A DNA stretch of 31,425 bases from assembly GCA_050239825.1 (NCBI GenBank), contig JBFXGO010000029.1, forward strand, positions 1 through 31,425, read 5' to 3'. Made by a program: the position numbers and the translations under genes. The notes beneath the pieces were generated by a model. It was not told the DNA's origin, ran no database searches, and saw nothing but the letters and a program-made list of their open reading frames with translations. The DNA is from a bacterium. GTDB lineage: Bacteria; Hydrothermota; 32-111. Within the stretch, counting starts at the first letter, position 1; every line of letters begins with the position of its first letter. Of this stretch, positions 20,241 to 30,527 are shown in pieces.

Positions 20241-22418
20241 CTACCTTATTATCACCATCTTTCTGTTTATCTGTGTCTCTCCGTCTCTGAATCTTATGAA
20301 GTATATGCCTGACGAAAGGTGTTCTGTTGAGTAGCTGTGCTGACCTATCCTTGTCTCTTTCGCTCTATATACTTCCTTGCCATTTATATCATATACAGAA
20401 AATTTGTTATCCCCTGTCGAATTTGTATACCTTATTTCATTCTGTAGTATATCCATCTTATGATTCTCTTTATCTTGCTTCTCTTCAACAAACTTTTCTG
20501 TTACTCCCATAAAAGGATCAAACTCTAAAATATATAATGCGCTTCCATCAGCAACATAGGCATAATCTCCTGAAACATAGACACCCCATGCACTCCTCGG
20601 TGTATCATAGCTACCTGTAAGGGTTGGGCTTGTGGGATTTGAGATATCTATTATCTGTAAACCAGAATCCTCATCAGCAACATACACATAACTGCCTGAA
20701 AGATAGACACCATAAGCAAAACCCGGTGTATCATAGCTCCCTGTTAGGGTTGGGCTTGTGGGGTCAGAGATGTTGATTATTTGTAAACCATAATCATAAT
20801 CAGCAACATAGGCATAACTGCCTGAAACAAAGACACGCCATGCAAGCCCCGGTGTATCATAGTTTCCTGCAAGGGTTGGGCTTGAAGGATTTGAGATGTC
20901 TATTATCTGTAAACCAGAATCATCATCAGCAACATACACATAACTGCCTGAAACATAGACACCCCATGCATAACCCGGTGTATCATAGCTTCCTGCAAGG
21001 GTTGGGCTTGAAGGATTTGAGATATCTATTATCTGTAAACCATAATCATCATCAGCAACATAGGCATAATCTCCTGAGACATAGACATCATAAGCATAAT
21101 CCGGTGTATCATAGCTTCCTGTTAGTGTTGGGCTTGAAGGATTTGAGATATCTATTATCTGTAAACCATAATCAACATCAGCAACATAGGCATAATCTCC
21201 TGAGACATATACATCATAAGCATAACCCGGTGTATCATAGCTTCCTGCAAGTGTTGGGCTTGAAGGATTTGAGATATCTATTATCTGTAAACCAAAACCC
21301 CAATCAGCAACATAGGCGTAATCTCCTGAAACATAGACATCATAAGCATAACTCGGTGTATCATAGCTACCTGTAAGGGTTGGGCTTGTGGGATTTGAGA
21401 TGTCTATTATCTGTAAACCATAATCATAATCAGCAACATAGGCATAACTGCCTGAAACATAGACACCCCTTGCAGTCCCCGGTGTATCATAGCTCCCTGT
21501 AAGTGTTGGGCTTGCAGGATTTGAGATGTCTATTATCTGTAAACCAGAACTACCATCAGCAACATAGGCATAACTGCCTGAAACAAAGAAACCCCATGCA
21601 CGACCCGGTGTATCATAGCTCCCTGCAAGTGTTGGGCTTGTGGGGTCAGAGATGTTGATTATCTGTAAACCACCATGATAATCAGCAACATACGCATAAT
21701 CTCCTGAGACATAGACATCATAAGCATAACCCGGTGTATCATAGCTACCTTTAAGTGTTGGGCTTGTGGGGTCAGAGATGTTTATTATTTGTAAACCATA
21801 ATCATAATCAGCAACATAGGCATAATCTCCTGAAACATAGACACCCCTTGCAGTCCCCGGTGTATCATAGCTCCCTGTAAGTGTTGGGCTTGAAGGATTT
21901 GAGATATCTATTATCTGTAAACCATAATCATAATCAGCAACATAGGCATAATCGCCTGAAACATAGACACCCCTTGCATAACCCTGTGTATCATAGCTCC
22001 CTGCAAGGGTTGGGCTTGAAGGATTTGAGATATCTATTATCTGTAAACCATAAGCTTCATCAGCAACATAGGCATAACTGCCTGAAACATAGACACCCCT
22101 TGCATAATCCGGTAAACTAAAATAACTTACCAAAAAAGGATTTGCTTTGTTCTTAACATTTAACACTACTAAATAATTATCCATACAAGAATATGCTAAT
22201 GTATCTACGATGAAAACATTATATGCATATCCAAAGAAAGGATAAATTCCTACTCCCCTTACATTCAAACTATCTGTCGCCCAGTTGGGTTGATTGTTAT
22301 CTTCCGGTTGTTCAAAGTTAGCAAGAAGCATATCCTCTTCTCTGAATGGTCTCTCATTTGAAGCAAAAACAAACAATGCTGAAACAATAATAATGATAAT
22401 GAAAATAACTTTTTTCAC
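20241..22418 (-). CDS. Secreted LVIVD-repeat beta-propeller protein with a T9SS type-A-like C-terminal sorting domain
   Basis: GTG start with AGGAGG SD and a signal peptide. 14 blades of ~42 aa (VYVSGxYAYVADxxxGLQIIDISNPxxPTLxGSYDTP). C-terminal SVYDINGKEV...HLSSGIYFIRF...RKMVIIR. Confidence 0.92.
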   Translation of the reverse strand: MKKVIFIIIIIVSALFVFASNERPFREEDMLLANFEQPEDNNQPNWATDSLNVRGVGIYPFFGYAYNVFIVDTLAYSCMDNYLVVLNVKNKANPFLVSYFSLPDYARGVYVSGSYAYVADEAYGLQIIDISNPSSPTLAGSYDTQGYARGVYVSGDYAYVADYDYGLQIIDISNPSSPTLTGSYDTPGTARGVYVSGDYAYVADYDYGLQIINISDPTSPTLKGSYDTPGYAYDVYVSGDYAYVADYHGGLQIINISDPTSPTLAGSYDTPGRAWGFFVSGSYAYVADGSSGLQIIDISNPASPTLTGSYDTPGTARGVYVSGSYAYVADYDYGLQIIDISNPTSPTLTGSYDTPSYAYDVYVSGDYAYVADWGFGLQIIDISNPSSPTLAGSYDTPGYAYDVYVSGDYAYVADVDYGLQIIDISNPSSPTLTGSYDTPDYAYDVYVSGDYAYVADDDYGLQIIDISNPSSPTLAGSYDTPGYAWGVYVSGSYVYVADDDSGLQIIDISNPSSPTLAGNYDTPGLAWRVFVSGSYAYVADYDYGLQIINISDPTSPTLTGSYDTPGFAYGVYLSGSYVYVADEDSGLQIIDISNPTSPTLTGSYDTPRSAWGVYVSGDYAYVADGSALYILEFDPFMGVTEKFVEEKQDKENHKMDILQNEIRYTNSTGDNKFSVYDINGKEVYRAKETRIGQHSYSTEHLSSGIYFIRFRDGETQINRKMVIIR
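20546..22112 (-). repeat. Intragenic 126-bp tandem repeat array (12 full near-identical units plus a partial terminal unit)
   Basis: Anchors such as gtgtatcatag and atcagcaacata recur with a 126-nt period. Confidence 0.95.
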
Positions 22419-22468
22419 AATTCCTCCTGTTTAAATTGTATAAATACTCCTTCTAATTTCTTTTTCAC
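22415..22468 (-). CDS. Possible 17-aa leader ORF coupled to the LVIVD gene
   Basis: AAGGAG SD, then GTG; MKKKLEGVFIQFKQEEL*. Its TGA overlaps the LVIVD GTG start (GTGA). Confidence 0.4.
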   Translation of the reverse strand: MKKKLEGVFIQFKQEEL

Positions 22469-22496
22469 AACCATCTCCTTTTTATTAACCATTTCA

Positions 22497-22525
22497 ATCA
22501 TATTGTATTGTGCCCACTTTGTCAA
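22497..22525 (-). promoter_or_regulatory. Promoter of the LVIVD gene
   Basis: TTGACA-17 nt-TATGAT. Confidence 0.7.
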
Positions 22526-22544
22526 GAAGTTTGCATAATAGTAT

Positions 22545-22570
22545 TGTAATGGTCACGATTATATTTCACA
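22545..22570. mobile_element. Possible isolated IS481-type terminal repeat
   Basis: 26-nt TGTAATGGTCACGATTATATTTCACA, with the same length and TGTA...TT(G/C)ACA frame as the 19691-19716 end. Confidence 0.4.
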
Positions 22571-22763
22571 CCGTACTTTGCGACAGCAAAAGGGCGGATT
22601 CTTCCAATCCGAAGACATCCTCTTCATTAATATTTATATCCGTTACCTAAATATGTTACCTAAATGGAAAAACGGTTATCCTAAAATCATTGCTAAATTA
22701 TATTACCTCCGCCAATCCTTCGTTAATCTCTTTGGAGAACTCCCTTATGAATACTAATCCCTC

Positions 22764-22789
22764 TTTACACAACTTCCTTGACAAGTCTC
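22764..22789 (-). mobile_element. IS256-family terminal inverted repeat (isolated)
   Basis: Minus strand GAGACTTGTCAAGGAAGTTGTGTAAA shares AAGTTGTGTAAA with the 19998 end, in inverted orientation. Confidence 0.6.
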
Positions 22790-22810
22790 GTGGCTTATTA
22801 ATTCTTGTTC

Positions 22811-22876
22811 GGGGCAGGGTGACAAGAGTTCTGAGCTTTCGCCCAAACTATGATTTTGAGTCTGCACCTGCCCCTT
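22811..22876 (-). ncRNA. Candidate ~65-nt structured small RNA of unknown class
   Basis: Closing stem GGGGCAGGUG/CAC(C)CUGCCCC and inner AGUU-UGGGC-GAAA-GCUCA-G-AACU hairpin. It begins just downstream of a TTGAAA-16-TATAAT promoter. Confidence 0.5.
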
Positions 22877-22883
22877 ACATTTT

Positions 22884-22911
22884 ATTATATACATTACTAA
22901 TCCTTTTTCAA
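22884..22911 (-). promoter_or_regulatory. Promoter of the candidate ncRNA
   Basis: TTGAAA-16 nt-TATAAT; predicted +1 at ~22876-22877. Confidence 0.55.
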
Positions 22912-22932
22912 GAGTAATAACTTATACGGTGC

Positions 22933-22960
22933 TTGACAATATTATTTAAAATGGTAAAAT
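22933..22960 (+). promoter_or_regulatory. Promoter of the membrane protein/pilin-like fusion gene
   Basis: TTGACA-16 nt-TAAAAT with a TGn extended -10. Confidence 0.65.
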
Positions 22961-22977
22961 TAAAAAAAAGGAGTATA

Positions 22978-24054
22978 ATGAAAATTAATGACAAATTGTT
23001 TCAGTTTTTTATTCTGATAGCTATGATGACATCAATAATCTCTCTTGAAGCCACTTCTTGGTCGATGAATTTTTTCCTTCTTCCTTCAATCGCCTTCACT
23101 TTCAGCGGTTTTATGATATTTTTGGTGCACGAAAAGCACATAATCAACAACTTTATGCGAACATACAAAAGAGCGCTTAAAGCGGCTTTGACTGCGGCTT
23201 TGTTCTTCTTTGCGGTTTACACTTCTTTACACACACTCTCAGCCGGCGCGGCTTTCTTGATCGTTTCAGCTGCATATACGGCATTCAGACATTTAAAAAA
23301 GAAAAATTATATTCTTCTCTTCATTTCTGCGCTTCCGCTCGCTCTTGCCTATTTTATTCCAGCTTATAAAGACAACATAACTGTGAAGATTCTTATGATT
23401 CTTGCATCATTTTCCGGAGAGACAGCCCTTATGTTCATGCTCCGCGAAGTTAAGGATGAATTTACTCAGAACCCAAAAGAGACACTCTGTTTCGCGAATC
23501 TAACGGTTGCGGTTATTTCTGTGCCTCTCTTTTTCATAACCAAATCCGACACTGCGGCTATACTTTCAAAGACGGAGCAGGTACATCTGTTCCTTATAAC
23601 ATTTATATACACTTTCCTTGTATCCTCTCTGGCGATAATCAAACCGAATTCACTGCGCCTCGACAGAAAGGTTTTTATTTTCGCATTCATAGTATCCGCA
23701 TCAGTAATTTCTCTCTTCAGTTTCTCGTTATTCTTCATAGCAGGAGCATTGATTCTTGCGGTTTTATTATTTTTTCAAAGCTTTAAAAAAGAGAAGAGAG
23801 GCATGGCTATTACGGAATTCATGGCTATTTTAACCCTATCATCTATATTGATATCAATGGTATTCCCAGTTTATTCTAAAATAAAGAGCGAAATCAATGT
23901 TAGAAATGACAAAAGACTCTATGAAGAGGGAAGACAGAATGAAATAGAGGATGCAATTAAAATCGGCGGATATTTTATAAAATCCGCCGATAACCAAATA
24001 AAATTTATCTACAAAACAAACTCAGAAAAATTCACATATTTCACTGCTGAATAG
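22978..24054 (+). CDS. Polytopic (EamA/DMT-like) membrane protein with a C-terminal type IV pilin-like domain
   Basis: Start at ATG 22978 behind AAGGAG. About 10 hydrophobic segments, then KKEKRG/MAITEFMAILTLSSILISMVFP (class III signal-like, with Glu+5 and Pro+22). Confidence 0.65.
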   Translation: MKINDKLFQFFILIAMMTSIISLEATSWSMNFFLLPSIAFTFSGFMIFLVHEKHIINNFMRTYKRALKAALTAALFFFAVYTSLHTLSAGAAFLIVSAAYTAFRHLKKKNYILLFISALPLALAYFIPAYKDNITVKILMILASFSGETALMFMLREVKDEFTQNPKETLCFANLTVAVISVPLFFITKSDTAAILSKTEQVHLFLITFIYTFLVSSLAIIKPNSLRLDRKVFIFAFIVSASVISLFSFSLFFIAGALILAVLLFFQSFKKEKRGMAITEFMAILTLSSILISMVFPVYSKIKSEINVRNDKRLYEEGRQNEIEDAIKIGGYFIKSADNQIKFIYKTNSEKFTYFTAE

Positions 24055-25720
24055 CAGTATAAACAGTCTCTTTTACCTTGCTACAGGACTTTTTCACATC
24101 TTCAAGCATTTTATCGGCCTGCTTCATTTTTTTATCCTTATACTCCTTATCCGACAAGTTCTTCAGATTGATAAGCACATTCATATATGCGCCCTCTGCG
24201 CACCCCTCTGCGTTTATGGCCGCCACTCCTGCATCTGAGATGGAATTGACATTGCCGATTACGCTTATTCTCTCCATTATTGAGAGAGAGGCGAGCACCT
24301 CTTCCATAGTTTTCAGAGGCACTTCAATCGCCGCCTTTGTGGCTTCTTCCAGAAGAGCGTCTCTTTTCTTTGCCTCCTCCTCTGTCTTTTTCGGCATCTT
24401 GAATGCAGCCATGTAGTTGTTGAACGCCTCTGTGTCATCATCTATCAAGCTCAAAAATGAATCCTTTATCCTCTGTGCTTTGGCGGCAATTTCATTTGCT
24501 TCCGCAGAATGTTTTTCGTATCCTTTTTTCATGTATGTCAGACTGGCTACCATTGATACAAGGGACGCCGCTATTGCGCCATTCAATGCGGCGACGCTTC
24601 CTCCGCCCGGCGCCGGCGAGTCTGTTGAGAGTTCGTCGCAGAAATCTTTTATTCTCATGTCTGCAAGATACTCTTTTCCGGAATTCTTTTTATACGCATA
24701 CTCTATAACCTTCTTGTCAATATCGAACGGATACAGGTGGTCAAGACCCAATGATTTTACCGCTATGTGTATCAGCTCTCTCTCCGGGACACCGCATGAT
24801 TTCCCCTGCTTTCTGAGAAAATATTCTCCGGCTTCGATAAGAGCATCTTTCGGAATCAGTCCGACAAGTTCGCTTCCTGTTGCCATCAAACCTCTCTTGG
24901 CTGCCTCTTCAGCGGCTGTTTCATAAGCGATGTGAGGAGGAGTCACCTTCCAGTTTGTAAGATTTATGGATATCTGCGCCACCTTGTACATGTCAATGTA
25001 CCATCCTATCGCTCTGCACTCCTTCAGCCGTCCGGGAGCAAAAAGGGTCTCTCCCTTTTCATTCTTGAGGATTTTTCCGTTTGCATCCTTCTTTGCGCTT
25101 CCCTTCTCTCTGATTGCATTCGCAACTGCCGTGGCGAGTTTTGCGTCCCTCGTATTTAAATTCACATTATAAGCTATGAGAAAGTCCCTTACTCCTATCA
25201 CGGTAGCGCCGCTCTTGACATTAAACTCGGGTTTGCCGAAATCAGGTTTCCATTCCGCCCTCTTTATCTTCTCGCCGAATCCTTCATACTCGCCCTCTCT
25301 TATAATTGCGAGAGATTTTCTCTTCTCTTCCGAAGCTGAGTATTCGTAAAGGTAAACAGGTATAGAAAGCTCATCCGCCACCCTCTTTGCAAGTCTTCTG
25401 GATATTTCGACGCACTCCTCTATCGTCACTCCGTTAACCGGTATCAAAGGACACACATCCGTCGCTCCCATTCTCGGATGCTCACCTTTGTGGGTGCGCA
25501 TATCAATGAGTTCCGACGCCTTCTTTATTGCCTTAAATGCGGAATCAACAACGGATTCGGGGGTGCCTATAAATGTTACCACGGTTCTGTTTGTATCTGC
25601 CCCCATATCAACATCCAAAAGCATCGAACCGTTCACATTGATTATCTCATCCGTTATCTGCTTTATCAACGCACTATCTCTGCCCTCGGAAAAATTCGGC
25701 ACGCACTCTATGAGTTTCAC
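24041..25720 (-). CDS. ftcd: Bifunctional glutamate formimidoyltransferase / formiminotetrahydrofolate cyclodeaminase
   Basis: ECVPNFSEGRD, NRTVVT, IDMRTHKGEHPRMGATDVCP and SELVGL, plus cyclodeaminase motifs PAPGGGSVAA and NVLINL. Confidence 0.95.
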   Translation of the reverse strand: MKLIECVPNFSEGRDSALIKQITDEIINVNGSMLLDVDMGADTNRTVVTFIGTPESVVDSAFKAIKKASELIDMRTHKGEHPRMGATDVCPLIPVNGVTIEECVEISRRLAKRVADELSIPVYLYEYSASEEKRKSLAIIREGEYEGFGEKIKRAEWKPDFGKPEFNVKSGATVIGVRDFLIAYNVNLNTRDAKLATAVANAIREKGSAKKDANGKILKNEKGETLFAPGRLKECRAIGWYIDMYKVAQISINLTNWKVTPPHIAYETAAEEAAKRGLMATGSELVGLIPKDALIEAGEYFLRKQGKSCGVPERELIHIAVKSLGLDHLYPFDIDKKVIEYAYKKNSGKEYLADMRIKDFCDELSTDSPAPGGGSVAALNGAIAASLVSMVASLTYMKKGYEKHSAEANEIAAKAQRIKDSFLSLIDDDTEAFNNYMAAFKMPKKTEEEAKKRDALLEEATKAAIEVPLKTMEEVLASLSIMERISVIGNVNSISDAGVAAINAEGCAEGAYMNVLINLKNLSDKEYKDKKMKQADKMLEDVKKSCSKVKETVYTAIQQ

Positions 25721-25733
25721 AAAAACCTCCTGC

Positions 25734-27233
25734 TTATTGCTCGTGTTTTACTATGTTGTATTCCTTGAGTTTATACTGCAGAGTCCTGAGGCTTATGCCC
25801 AGAACATCGCTTGTCTTCTTTCTTGAATATTCATTTTCCTTCAACACATTGATTATATGCTCTCTTTCAACATCCTTAAGCTTCTTTGAAAACACCTCGC
25901 GTCTGATTATATTCTTGTTGGATATCTCGGGCGGCAGGTCGTCAACCGTAATCAGTTCATTCTGCGACATAACAATCGCATGCTGCATCATGTTTTCAAG
26001 TTCGCGTATATTGCCGGGCCAGTCGTACTGCATCAGCACGCTCATCGCTTCGCTTGACACCCCGTCAACCGCCTTTGATTTTGTGTTGAGTTTGTTTAGA
26101 AGATACTTGACGAGTATGGGCACATCATCCTTTCTCGCCCTTAAGGGGGGTATATCAATCTTTATCACCTTAAGCCTGTAGTAGAGGTCCTCCCTGAAAG
26201 TGCCCTTCTTGACTTCATCTTCAAGCACCCTGTTTGTAGCAGATATTATCCTGACATCCACATCCCTGTCCTCAGTGTCTCCTATCCTTCGTATCTTATG
26301 CTCCTGAAGAACCCTTAAAAGCTTAGTCTGAATTGTCAAAGAGAGGTCGCCCACTTCGTCGAGGAAGAAGGTTCCTCCGTCTGCCGCTTCAAAGAGGCCA
26401 ACCTTGTCTGACATTGCTCCAGTGAAAGATCCCTTCTTATATCCGAAGAGTTCGCTCTCCAGAAGGGTCTCCGGAAGAGCCCCGCAGTACTGGGTTATGA
26501 ATTTTTTGTCCTTCCTCGAAGAGTTGTGATGTATAGCCCTTGCTATTAGGCCTTTTCCGGTTCCGCTCTCTCCGTGAAGAAGCACCGGCACATCCGTATT
26601 GGATATTTTTTCGAGAAGCTCTGTGACATGCCTCATCTGCTTAGATACTCCTATTATATCCTCAAAATGAAACATTGAAGATATTTCATTCTTCAATGTT
26701 TTGTTCTCGATTGCTAGAGAATTGGTCAGCTTTGCATTCTCAATGCTTAATACTGCAAGATTGGCAAATGCATTCATGAATTCAAGCGCATCTTCGTCAA
26801 AGATTTTCTTCATTGTCTGAGTATCAAGATATATAACCCCTATTGTGCGGTCAATCCTCTTTAACGGAACAACTATAATCGAATGGAGATTGTAGAGAGC
26901 GACCGACTGATTCTCCGTGAACCTCGGGTCGGACATTGCATCCGAAGTGCGCACCGCCTCCCCCGTCTGTAGCGCATTATAGACAGATGTCATGGATATC
27001 TCTTTTGAATTTATAATGTTCTCTTTTCTCAGGTTTCTCGCCACTTCAACCTTCATCTCCTGAGTTCTCTCGTCTGTTATCATCAGAAATCCCCGCTCCG
27101 CATCGACAGTGTTAATGGCAATATCCATAATCTTTTCCAAAAGTTCGCCATAGTCCCTTATGGAGTTTATCACTTCGCTTGCCTGATAGAGGGACCTAAG
27201 TATGCTGATGCTCTCCGGAAGATCTTTTTTCAT
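25734..27233 (-). CDS. GAF-domain sigma54-dependent Fis-family transcriptional activator (bEBP)
   Basis: N-terminal GAF, GESGTGK, ESELFG, GSFTGA loop, [21 protein letters not shown] and a Fis HTH. Start at ATG 27233 behind AAAGGAG. Confidence 0.95.
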
Positions 27234-27244
27234 TCTTTCTCCTT

Positions 27245-28201
27245 TCAAAATATCGAGAATGTTACCGAGTTTTCGCTGTAATTTCCGAACAGGTCGTACA
27301 GCCTGAGGTAGAGTGAATATGCTCCTTCATTAAGAAGAGTATTTATATAAACGCCTGTTTTGGAGGATTGAATGCTGTCGTAAGAGAGCACGAGACCTCC
27401 TGCGTCGCACATTTCTATTTTAAAATAGGATTCAAACAAAACACTCTGGGATGACCATATAACCGAATCCGGAAGTATCAGGGCTCCGCCCTCCTCGGGT
27501 GATATGATTTTTGGAACCGTTTCAACGAATCTCACAAGGCTTGCCGCATTGCTCTTTACTATCTCCCCCGATTTATCATAAACCTCTATAAAGCAGTCCT
27601 CACCCTGCAGATCGTATATCCTGAAAAATTCATTATCTTCCGCAAAATTGAGAGTGCATCTCACATTCTCTTCACTTTCGACGAGAAACATCTTAAACCT
27701 CTGCGAATCTATTGTCATAATGCATGAATCTATGTCTTCAATTCCGTCCCTCTCATCAAGAATTGAAAAGTAATTGACATCATAGTCAAGCGTGTCGGTG
27801 AAGGATTTCACAGTCCTCACAGTCGAATATGCCTTAAGCTCCTCTATAACCGGAATGTAATTTAAAACAACTTCAAAATCAAGAAGTTCTCCGGTGCTTA
27901 TGAATGTGTCCTTCTTGAAAACTCTGTATCCAGCCTTCTCTATGCTTAAGGAGAGAGTTCCTTTGTCAAAAGTGCCTATAGAAAAAATCCCGTCTATGTT
28001 AGTGTAGAATTCAAGGGTATCGTTTATCTTTATCAGGACATTCTCCTGAGGATTCCCCGACTTGTCTTTGACATAAATTGAAATTGCGCCCTTTCCGAAC
28101 GGATTCAATCCGTCATACCTGCTGTCATGCGGCATATCAATGTAACATGAAGTCAGAAATAAAACTGAAACAAGCAAAAGCCCGGTTATTCGTTTCACCA
28201 T
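27245..28201 (-). CDS. Lipoprotein with carboxypeptidase-regulatory-like and Ig-like domains
   Basis: Lipobox LTS-C; GAISIYVKDKSGNP...YTNIDGIF...IEKAGY. Confidence 0.75.
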   Translation of the reverse strand: MVKRITGLLLVSVLFLTSCYIDMPHDSRYDGLNPFGKGAISIYVKDKSGNPQENVLIKINDTLEFYTNIDGIFSIGTFDKGTLSLSIEKAGYRVFKKDTFISTGELLDFEVVLNYIPVIEELKAYSTVRTVKSFTDTLDYDVNYFSILDERDGIEDIDSCIMTIDSQRFKMFLVESEENVRCTLNFAEDNEFFRIYDLQGEDCFIEVYDKSGEIVKSNAASLVRFVETVPKIISPEEGGALILPDSVIWSSQSVLFESYFKIEMCDAGGLVLSYDSIQSSKTGVYINTLLNEGAYSLYLRLYDLFGNYSENSVTFSIF

Positions 28202-28890
28202 ATTATATCAAATAGGTTAAAGGCATAAACAGAGAGAGTCGCGTCAAATGCGAATCTGTTCAACTTTGACCAGAGATTGTATTCATCGTAATACTTTGCG
28301 GCATCGTCCTCGGTGACAGCGTCATAGTAATTCTCTCTGGCATTTAAAGTAATGAAAAAGGATGTGACCGTGCTGAGAAGGGAAACCGCAAAGACTGAAC
28401 CCATAGCTATCCCTTTAGTCTTTTCATCCATGTCGAACTGACCCCAGCCCGGAACAAAGGATGACTTTAAAATCAGATTTTGGCGCGTAAACCTGTAAAT
28501 CTGTTGACCCGGATTTATCATATAATACTGAGGGGATTCCTTTATTAAAAAGGATATTCTCTCCTTTGCCTTTGAAAATATGTGTATTATCTTTGGAGAT
28601 ACAAACTCTTCATTCAGAGAATAATTGACATTCATAGTGAGTATGTTTTCAAAATGCTTCTGCGCATTTATCGTGTCTCCAATTGCAACATAGGAGAATG
28701 CTATGTATGTGGACAGATTTATTTTGTCTTGCTTCTCCATGTCCGTTCCCGCCTTGTCAAGAAGCTCCTCGCCGCTCTCAATCGCCTGTTTGTACTCTCC
28801 TGTTTCATAAAAAACGATGACATCGTTTATTGAGACGGGAAATATCATAAGAGCGCATAAGACGGTTGTCAGAATGAATAAAACTTTCGT
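28195..28890 (-). CDS. Secreted TPR protein with a C-terminal DUF5683-like region
   Basis: TPR helices (YETGEYKQAI...AFSYVAIGD..NAQKHF), SPKI and SFVPGWGQF. Proposed ACG start at 28890 behind AGGAGG; the first in-frame ATG is 28848. Confidence 0.75.
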   Translation of the reverse strand, partial: TKVLFILTTVLCALMIFPVSINDVIVFYETGEYKQAIESGEELLDKAGTDMEKQDKINLSTYIAFSYVAIGDTINAQKHFENILTMNVNYSLNEEFVSPKIIHIFSKAKERISFLIKESPQYYMINPGQQIYRFTRQNLILKSSFVPGWGQFDMDEKTKGIAMGSVFAVSLLSTVTSFFITLNARENYYDAVTEDDAAKYYDEYNLWSKLNRFAFDATLSVYAFNLFDIIW

Positions 28891-30527
28891 AAGACCTCCT
28901 CTTCTGAGATGGTTATTTCATCCTCGATTGCCGGGTACTTTGAATTTACAAGTTTTATGCTGTGCGGACCTGTCAGCAGAACCAATGAATCATTCAGAGG
29001 CGTTGTGCCGACAAGCTGGTCATCAATGTAAACATCCGCCCACGGACGCACTACAATTTTGAAGAACCCATAAGCCTTTTCAAGTTCTACATTAAGCTTC
29101 AAAGTGCTGTCCTTTTTTATTTCTATTTCTGCCGTATAGTTTTTTCTGTTCGGATGTTTTAGCTGAAGAGTGTACCTGCCTGCCTTCAGCTTTATATTCT
29201 CATCTATCGGAGTCCTGTCGAAGAGCTGGTCATTGATGTAAACATCGGCCCATGGGGATGCATTTACAGAAAGGAACCCCCACTTCTCCACAACCACTAT
29301 TTTCTTCATCTCAAAGAATATTGTGTCATTTGCCGTCAGTTCGACTGTCGTGTCTCTTTTCTCGTAATCAGCCGATACTGTGGTTAGTTTGAATGTGCCT
29401 TTGTCAAGAGAAATAACCTGAGGCGTCTGCACTATTATTGAATCATTTATCTTCACCTGAATGCTCTTGGGGGAGGAGTTAATGTATAGGAATGGCTTGG
29501 TTTCATTGTTCGGCAAATAGATAGTGCGCACACTGCTTCTTGTGGAAGTGAAAATCTGAAAACCAACAACAAAGACAAGAATCAAAAAGAGCAATGACAG
29601 CACTGTGGCTTGCAGGCCCCGCCTCTCCTTTTTAACCCGTATCACGATTCCGGTCTTATCAATCACTCTCTGAGTGTCAAACATGAACTGTCTGAATTCA
29701 TCCTTTGTTACAGGATTTTCAAACTGTGATATAATCGAAAAAAGTTCTTCTCCGCTCTTAGGCCTCTTTGACATATCGCGGTTAAGCATTGATTTTAGAA
29801 TATCGACTACAACCTGAGGCACCTCATCCACATTGAAATCAATATTCAGCGATTGAAAGTAAAGTATATTGTTGATTGTCTCAAACTGATCCTTTCCTTC
29901 AAACGGATTCTTCCCTGTCAGAATTTCTGCGAAGGTAATTCCGAGAGAGAAGATGTCCGATACAGCAGAGAGCTGTTTCCCTGTCAACTGTTCCGGAGGA
30001 AAGTAGGCCGGTGTACCCATATAGGTGCCGGGATTTGTCACATTGACAGACTCACTTCCGAATGCAAGTCCGAAATCTGTAAGCTTCACCACACCCTCAT
30101 CCGAAATCATTATATTATCCGGCTTAAGGTCCCTGTGCAGTATGTTATTTTTATGAACATGCGACAATCCCTTTAAGACCTCTTTTAATATGTAGAGAGC
30201 ATACTTCACGGGGATCTTTCCCTTGTCCTTAATAATCTGTTTTAAAGACCTGCCCTTAATATACTCAAGCACAATGAACTTGTCTCCCTCCTTCTCATAG
30301 AAGTCAAATATTCCCACTATGTTCTCATGTTGCAATTTTCCGAGAAGAGCCGCCTCTCTCTTGAACCTTTTGACAAAATTTGCATCTTCCGACAGGTGGG
30401 GGTGCAATTTTTTAATAACAACCTCTCTATTGAGAGATATCTGCACTCCCTTGTAGATGGTTGCCATGCCACCTGTGGCAATTGTCTCTATTATTTGGTA
30501 TTTTTCTTCTTGTTTCTCATTGTTCAT
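28869..30527 (-). CDS. Hanks-type Ser/Thr protein kinase with a TM helix and extracytoplasmic PEGA domains
   Basis: ATGGMATIY, VIKK, HRDLKPDN, DFG, GTPAYFPPEQ and SDIFSLG; a TM helix; repeats such as PWADVYIND..RTP. Confidence 0.95.
   Translation of the reverse strand: MNNEKQEEKYQIIETIATGGMATIYKGVQISLNREVVIKKLHPHLSEDANFVKRFKREAALLGKLQHENIVGIFDFYEKEGDKFIVLEYIKGRSLKQIIKDKGKIPVKYALYILKEVLKGLSHVHKNNILHRDLKPDNIMISDEGVVKLTDFGLAFGSESVNVTNPGTYMGTPAYFPPEQLTGKQLSAVSDIFSLGITFAEILTGKNPFEGKDQFETINNILYFQSLNIDFNVDEVPQVVVDILKSMLNRDMSKRPKSGEELFSIISQFENPVTKDEFRQFMFDTQRVIDKTGIVIRVKKERRGLQATVLSLLFLILVFVVGFQIFTSTRSSVRTIYLPNNETKPFLYINSSPKSIQVKINDSIIVQTPQVISLDKGTFKLTTVSADYEKRDTTVELTANDTIFFEMKKIVVVEKWGFLSVNASPWADVYINDQLFDRTPIDENIKLKAGRYTLQLKHPNRKNYTAEIEIKKDSTLKLNVELEKAYGFFKIVVRPWADVYIDDQLVGTTPLNDSLVLLTGPHSIKLVNSKYPAIEDEITISEEEVLRKFYSF

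Follow-up and report, generated by a model that had tools for sequence, protein, structure and literature searches.

Type IV pilins share a signal of the form [K/R]G / F/M-x-x-x-E, about 21 hydrophobic residues, a proline at position +22, a long α1 helix and a small β sheet. According to the available text of Berry and Pelicic (PMC4471445), the class III leaders of these proteins comprise 6–26 hydrophilic residues that end in Gly and are cleaved at the cytoplasmic face; Gly-1 is critical for this processing, whereas Glu5 is dispensable for processing and needed for assembly. Prepilin peptidases are thought to act only on such short N-terminal leaders, and pilin finders as well as Pfam and InterPro models assume so. 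Transporters of the drug/metabolite transporter (DMT) superfamily, including YddG/EamA (5i20), LicB (7b0k), TPT (5y78) and the SLC35 nucleotide-sugar transporters, have in common a fold of ten transmembrane (TM) helices with both ends in the cytoplasm. Here we analyse a bacterial gene in which the two kinds of protein are joined in one open reading frame (ORF). It lies at 22978–24054 on the + strand of a stretch of 31,425 nt (contig JBFXGO010000029.1; the whole stretch is called the window below), runs from an ATG at 22978 to a TAG stop at 24052–24054 and encodes a protein of 358 amino acids (aa). Whereas type IV pilins carry their signal behind a short hydrophilic leader, the signal of the fusion protein occupies residues 270–298, behind a domain with ten TM segments. 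We give even chances to the reading that the protein is a polyprotein from which prepilin peptidase, cutting at the cytoplasmic face, makes two products, one with the DMT fold and the other a minor pilin of 83 aa.

The fusion is a genuine, conserved single ORF and neither an artefact nor a split gene. A word-indexed search returned three full-length relatives with 51–61% identity, and HMMER, run exhaustively over 1.84 billion representative proteins (E ≤ 0.001), returned 12 proteins, all of about 350 residues and matched end to end except for one 58-aa fragment and one 307-aa protein that lacks the first ~56 residues. Among these 12 matches there was no DMT-only or pilin-only relative, and a profile search of a 5.8-billion protein collection yielded no further family members. 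When 272 genomes of the phylum were searched with the profile, 59 had matches. Within the window's own taxonomic family (f1), a match without internal stop was present in all 13 other genomes, as full-length fusions in 11 and as pieces cut by contig ends in two. Outside this family, the profile matched only with its positions ~260–330, in ORFs of mostly 130–290 residues; each of the 17 such ORFs scanned against Pfam carried PF07963 above cut-off, several of them with a GspH domain. The fusion was not found in any other family among the 272 genomes; it is present in single copy and is restricted to one bacterial family of uncultivated organisms. The original prediction, which was made from the letters of the window and the translations of its ORFs, had envisaged that homologues might be split into two genes; no split homologue was found among the 1.84 billion representatives or in the 13 other genomes of the family.

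That two adjacent genes were joined here through an error of sequencing or assembly, or through a frameshift of recent date, is practically impossible, as the frame is uninterrupted in 20 homologues, the same frame occurs in 12 independently assembled genomes and in further metagenome proteins, and the junction is the best conserved part of the protein. Read data agree as well: a 5823-base Logan contig spans 22844–24300 with 0 differing letters and 0 gaps, although it is not independent support because its run may be the source sample. The protein evolves fast, with a whole-protein identity between genera of 23–31% versus 58–69% for the adjacent formimidoyltransferase-cyclodeaminase (FTCD) and 68–78% for a sigma-54 activator of the same neighbourhood. 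No unfused ancestor was seen in the sister family (f2), where the short contigs (L070, L071) hold no DMT or pilin gene downstream of FTCD. On these contigs, FTCD is followed by a co-directional AAA ATPase gene (GDVGTGKTT motif), soon after which the contigs break off.

The N-terminal 272 residues have the DMT-superfamily fold in the predicted structure. AlphaFold2, run with 20 sequences, modelled the full protein with a mean predicted local distance difference test score (pLDDT) of 86.7 and a predicted TM-score (pTM) of 0.70, and built the membrane domain as ten helices with pLDDT ~85–95; a 4-sequence run reached only pLDDT 48. Comparison of residues 1–272 with 48,161 PDB representatives by VIA-align placed eight DMT-superfamily transporters at the top, led by TPT 5y78 (Z 17.9, 260 residues aligned, root-mean-square deviation 3.7), SLC35B1 (Z 15.9), YddG (Z 14.0) and LicB (Z 13.6). 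The remaining DMT rows had Z of 11.8, 11.1, 11.0 and 10.0, and the next row, at 6.7, consisted of half-MFS matches. All eight DMT alignments cover 229–260 residues and lie within model residues 1–277. Foldseek likewise returned only DMT proteins in its top rows (E 4e-3, TM-score by target 0.55–0.61).

The label EamA/DMT-like, under which the protein was originally predicted, is therefore borne out by the fold of the model and not by Pfam, as the cut-off of EamA (PF00892) was reached by none of the 20 members, one of which had E 0.021. A six-frame EamA scan of the genome found other ORFs and not the fusion ORF. The genome encodes at least five ordinary EamA proteins of 274–305 aa; an hhalign comparison with the genome's five EamA proteins was collinear over 219 columns at a probability of only 17.6%. 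An internal 5+5 repeat is not detectable in the sequence, the N-terminal and C-terminal halves of the membrane domain matching each other with a probability of 0.2%. Scans of the window protein against Pfam and NCBIfam gave no significant match.

By Kyte–Doolittle hydropathy, the first 268 residues contain ten hydrophobic segments, all ahead of the pilin-like helix. With the N-terminus set inside, the loops carry 17 Lys and Arg residues on the inner side versus 3 on the outer side, and because of this count the KKEKRG/M junction is placed in the cytoplasm. The cleavage junction is thus predicted to face the cytoplasm, with the positive-inside count and the DMT fold in agreement, as the original prediction had expected from a 10-TM DMT topology. 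Its other landmarks were also recovered in place, namely the ~10 TM segments, KKEKRG, Gly-1, Glu+5, Pro+22 and an 83-aa unit from 23803. On the + strand, the DMT-fold membrane domain (residues 1–268, ten TM helices with both ends cytoplasmic, as judged by hydropathy, positive-inside count, AlphaFold2 and structure comparison) is encoded at 22978..23781. It is followed at 23782..23802 by the basic cytoplasmic linker FKKEKRG (residues 269–275, with KKEKRG at 270–275), which ends in Gly-1; conservation and the model predict the prepilin-peptidase site after G275. The pilin α1N, MAITEFMAILTLSSILISMVFPV (residues 276–298), is encoded at 23803..23871, begins with the M276 codon at 23803 and carries E280 at +5 and P297 at +22; it was delimited by conservation and by in-register alignment to the N-termini of geopilin and PilA. 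The remaining stretch, 23872..24054, encodes α1C and a four-stranded β head (residues 299–358, from the AlphaFold2 model) and includes the stop. Downstream of Gly275 there are 83 residues, a mature size within the range of short type IV pilins, and the α1N helix is followed by a polar tail of ~60 residues. The class III features are complete: [K/R][K/R]G / F/M x x x E, ~21 hydrophobic residues and Pro+22. In the AlphaFold2 model, the linker at 271–276 is the sole stretch with pLDDT <50, and it coincides with the proposed cleavage site.

On profile evidence, the C-terminal 83–89 residues are homologous to the N-termini of type IV pilins. A profile built from 12 C-terminal modules had four matches in the PDB, all of them type IV pilins, and the best of these, geopilin 9egp_A (E 1.4e-4), aligned with Gly-1, Phe+1, Glu+5 and Pro+22 in register. 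AlphaFold2 models the module with a helix at 278–316 and strands at 326–329, 332–337, 340–348 and 351–356 (pLDDT 76–83). Structure matches of the head were weak (VIA-align; GspK Z 5.3, PilA5 Z 4.8). In the ESM Atlas, residues 272–358 matched a 106-residue cluster that is 97% N_methyl, with a TM-score of 0.51, the Atlas's own model being poor (pLDDT 0.51). The other structure rows from the Atlas were discarded as noise that rests on this model, and a feature search gave no usable match.

We then counted conservation in an alignment of 20 full-length members and codon use over 12 loci. The invariant columns of the alignment are L204, E280 (+5), P297 (+22), D311 and Y345. Gly-1 is present in 19 of the 20 sequences and replaced by Ala in one, and both Glu+5 and Pro+22 are present in 20/20; the two residues whose loss would have spoken against the original prediction, Gly-1 and Glu+5, are thus kept in the same homologues that keep the fusion. 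Lys or Arg occupies position -2 in 18 of the 20 sequences and position -3 in 16 of them. With a mean pairwise identity of 0.44, the junction together with α1N is the best conserved region, compared with 0.27 for the DMT domain. Over the 12 loci, all four Gly codons are used at -1, all four Pro codons at +22 and both Glu codons at +5, which indicates that these residues are held by selection and do not merely reflect recency. A loose regular expression for the motif matched six of the ~1907 ORFs of the genome: three N-terminal pilins, the fusion ORF and two other internal sites, the latter in membrane proteins without Pro+22. The motif by itself is within chance; its conservation in 20 homologues, the codon turnover and the pilin-only profile matches put it beyond chance.

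If the protein is a polyprotein, its first ~268 residues would insert as a ten-helix DMT-fold domain with both ends in the cytoplasm, and the flexible basic FKKEKRG would lead into the pilin α1 helix, which would form an eleventh span outward and leave the β head in the periplasm. The genome's single A24 peptidase would be expected to cut after Gly275, because linker and helix form a complete class III signal on the peptidase's side of the membrane. This cut would set free the DMT-fold membrane domain as one product and a minor pilin of 83 residues as the other; Glu+5 would allow the latter to join the type IV pilus, whose genes lie elsewhere in the genome. Given the roles ascribed to the two residues in the available text of PMC4471445, the retention of both Gly-1 and Glu+5 fits a protein that is cut and then assembled. 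As to its origin, a DMT gene would most probably have lost its stop ahead of a pilin gene; since the peptidase removes whatever precedes Gly-1, such a fusion could have been tolerated and later fixed in one bacterial family. Cleavage, incorporation into a pilus, any transport function and any functional link between the two products are inferred. For signalling or activation of the membrane domain, which the original prediction had put forward as well, no support was found in this analysis.

The genome (2.1 Mb, 99% complete) encodes the machinery that such a route would use. Another of its contigs (C27) carries two copies of PilB, PilT, PilC, PilS, PilR, two pilins and one A24 prepilin peptidase; apart from the fusion, motif and Pfam scans found only three pilins in the genome. 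The peptidase (C27:26646-27320, equivalent to L046:2647-3321, - strand; 225 aa) is the single PF01478 protein of the genome and conserves the catalytic D80 and GEGD156. Across the family, one protein query detected an A24 peptidase in 12 of 14 genomes, the two misses being genomes that are 91–93% complete. The peptidase of the window's genome is without a Cys-rich N-terminal segment of ~36 residues (CxxC...CxxC) that nine relatives of the same family keep. With its catalytic Asp residues kept and this segment absent, the enzyme may cleave and not methylate, as judged from its sequence. A complex predicted from this peptidase and the full-length fusion protein had an ipSAE of 0.46 (runs 0.46, 0.31 and 0.49) versus 0.00 for the best control, with at least 77% of contacts agreeing between runs and a partner pLDDT of at least 75. 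Among 157 solved complexes, 116 reach the mark applied to such predictions, and among 215 mismatched pairs only 2 do so; a passing score of 0.60 or below was seen for 18 of the 157 solved complexes and for both mismatches that passed.

Several observations weigh against processing by the peptidase. The predicted complex is rated as a weak pass. Known prepilins, as far as the available text of PMC4471445 covers them, have no leader beyond ~26–30 hydrophilic residues, and an A24 peptidase would here have to reach a site tethered to a ten-helix bundle. Position +1 is Phe in 13 of the 20 members and Met in the window's protein. Topology alone could also keep Gly and Lys/Arg at a cytoplasmic turn ahead of a TM helix. 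As regards genome context, only three of the 12 loci have a pilin gene next to the fusion gene, and there are no pilus genes in the 31,425-nt window. Family models do not recognise the module: Pfam N_methyl (PF07963, IPR012902) matched neither the window's protein nor any of 12 C-terminal modules at an E limit of 10, and 0/20 full-length members at an E limit of 1, and the best NCBIfam pilin model, NF007848, reached E 0.05–0.17. A six-frame N_methyl scan of the genome found the three other pilins and not the fusion ORF. The prepilin-like label of the original prediction thus stands on pilin homology and on the retention of Gly-1, Glu+5 and Pro+22, and finds no backing in Pfam. Finally, two unrelated small α/β proteins, YoeB and HigB (Z 4.8–4.9), tie with the weak pilin matches of the head.

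Some of these points would be expected if the fused pilin were an exapted relic, unconnected with pilus or peptidase, whose helix and head now do no more than supply a DMT-type transporter with one additional TM helix and a small domain in the periplasm. The lack of pilus genes in the window, the failure of Pfam N_methyl, the chance occurrence of the loose motif in two other membrane proteins of the genome and the resemblance of the head to unrelated small α/β folds all agree with such a relic. However, within this fast-evolving protein conservation is highest at the junction and α1N (0.44 versus 0.27), and the frozen positions are exactly those of the pilin signature (-1, +5 and +22), including a charged Glu within a TM helix. 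We consider a relic improbable.

A rather unlikely reading, and a better one than the relic, is that the protein is never cut. The pilin-like helix would then stay as an 11th TM helix and, through the pilin assembly interface (Glu+5, Pro+22), attach the DMT domain to the pilus machine, to the pool of pilins in the membrane or to the sensor PilS; as variants, the protein might be a stopper or last subunit that cannot be extracted, or might mimic a pilin and in this way report to PilS. Among the residues of the signature, the invariant ones (20/20) are those of assembly and interaction, Glu+5 and Pro+22, whereas Gly-1 is once Ala and +1 varies, as would suit a tether. In PilA, residues E5 and P22 of α1N matter for PilS sensing, and the genome encodes both PilR and a PilS with a 6TM_PilS domain. 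Moreover, the periplasmic loop 189–204 of the DMT domain (TKP..A..LS...Q.HL), which is among the best conserved parts of the protein, could contact the head. Set against this, Gly-1 and the two preceding Lys/Arg residues are kept in 18–19 of the 20 members with codon turnover, and an uncleaved helix has no obvious need of them. The linker is modelled as flexible and not packed, and the peptidase is present and would meet a textbook site. The single Ala at -1 speaks against a tether too, as Ala is an allowed leader end in the available text of Raynaud et al. 2021 (PMC8179133).

In a further reading, the pilin module would be made, additionally or exclusively, from an internal start as an ordinary prepilin with a short leader. 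In three of the 12 loci (L014, L015 and L016) the junction reads ...KK(G/R)MKKG/FGVSE, and translation from the in-frame Met at -3 would give the leader MKKG/F, the same as in one of the genome's own pilins (MKKG/FTLIEL). In one locus, a TTG at -14 is preceded by a Shine–Dalgarno-like box 9 nt upstream. However, no start codon with a properly spaced Shine–Dalgarno sequence is conserved between -30 and +1 across the 12 loci, and two of the 12 have no ATG, GTG or TTG there at all. Near its junction, the window offers a single in-frame start, the ATG at 23803, at position +1; it has a GAGG only 1 nt upstream and would give a leaderless protein, and a consensus scan found no promoter-like site just upstream of 23803. 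Hence the original prediction, which had noted neither a stop codon between the two parts nor a well-spaced Shine–Dalgarno sequence for a separate prepilin start, holds for the window, and no such start is conserved across the 12 loci. We regard internal translation as very improbable. On its sequence, the MKKG/F of the three loci looks like a possible fossil start of a once separate pilin gene.

Signals for expression of the whole fusion gene lie just ahead of its own start. A sigma-70-like promoter, TTGACA-16-TAAAAT with a TG before the -10 box (extended -10), was found by consensus scan at 22933..22960 (+ strand, 11/12 matches), and a Shine–Dalgarno sequence, AGGAG, can be read at 22969..22973 (+ strand), 4 nt ahead of the ATG at 22978; purine-rich boxes like AGGAG precede the start codons in 12 homologues. 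A terminator-like hairpin inside the ORF at 23740–23759 (seven pairs, three of them GC) lies in the coding sequence of TM10 and was judged to be due to chance. Rfam gave no match in 22300–24200, and ARAGORN none in 22300–23000.

The fusion gene is convergent with a block of five genes at 24041–30527 (- strand), which encode a PEGA Ser/Thr kinase, a 217-aa protein, a 318-aa CarboxypepD_reg-like protein, a GAF sigma-54 activator and FTCD. The order of this block is kept in 12/12 loci, always convergent with the fusion gene and overlapping its 3' end; in the window, the last 14 bases of the fusion gene overlap the 3' end of the FTCD gene. No functional link between the five-gene block and the fusion gene was found. 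On the other side of the fusion gene, the neighbours vary among loci. In the window, 20241–22418 (- strand) encodes a protein of 725 aa that combines 12 LVIVD repeats with a C-terminal sorting domain for type IX secretion (Por_Secre_tail), and this gene is absent from the corresponding place in related loci. The intergenic sequence 22419–22790 (and also 22811–22914) upstream of the fusion gene is a dispersed repeat of ~372 bases, of which other contigs of the genome carry at least 12 further full or partial copies with 88–98% identity, including a short form of 210 bases. In Logan contigs, the summed depth of the repeat is very high and its loose ends are numerous; it showed no tRNA and no Rfam match.

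The three loci with a neighbouring pilin gene belong to three genomes of one genus (G004–G006, loci L043–L045), in which a gene for a 164-residue N_methyl pilin lies ~700 bases from the fusion gene. In these loci, the 164-aa pilin follows a protein of 167 aa that has an acidic N-terminus and a single TM helix, the pair being divergent and ~180–1250 bases from the fusion gene. In the window's genome, a pair of similar build occurs at C32:6333-7321. A comparison did not establish orthology of the two pairs, as the pilins are alike only in their N-terminal 68 residues (E 2e-9) and the upstream proteins are not significantly similar (E 0.61).

How does the fusion compare with proteins of related design? 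The cytochrome b–c1 precursor encoded by Bradyrhizobium fbcH is a polyprotein that is split at an internal signal peptide. Like the fusion gene, fbcH joins a polytopic membrane protein and a following signal-peptide-bearing protein in one ORF. The fbcH precursor has a class I signal, which is cut at the outer face by signal peptidase I, whereas the fusion has a class III signal at the cytoplasmic face and would depend on an A24 aspartic peptidase. Term searches of a limited literature collection found no description of a polytopic or DMT domain ahead of a class III signal, which is no proof of absence. We see slightly less than an even chance that this is the first class III signal with a whole ten-helix transporter-fold protein as its leader, and that the peptidase acts as a maturase which separates a polytopic protein from a minor pilin. 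If true, the substrate range of A24 peptidases would widen to internal sites of polytopic proteins, and the supply of one pilus subunit would be tied 1:1 to a DMT-type membrane protein. With one gene, one peptidase and one Gly, the fusion would offer a simple system for questions of site recognition and of coupling between pilus and transporter. Pilin censuses based on N-terminal motifs miss subunits such as the fusion module.

Compared with known DMT transporters, the fusion protein is unlike them in having no Pfam EamA match (20/20 members) and in carrying a pilin at its C-terminus; unlike the type IV pilins compared, its gene lies outside a pilin cluster in the window. Related in design are the modular pilins, which in the available text of Raynaud et al. 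2021 (PMC8179133) likewise consist of a pilin module joined by a short linker to a domain that is not specific to pilus biology. In the modular pilins described there, the pilin module is N-terminal and the extra module comes after it and is displayed on the filament. In the fusion protein, by contrast, the extra module is an integral membrane domain that stands ahead of the class III signal, and processing would cut it off. The fusion family would thereby add a reversed architecture to the concept of the modular pilin.

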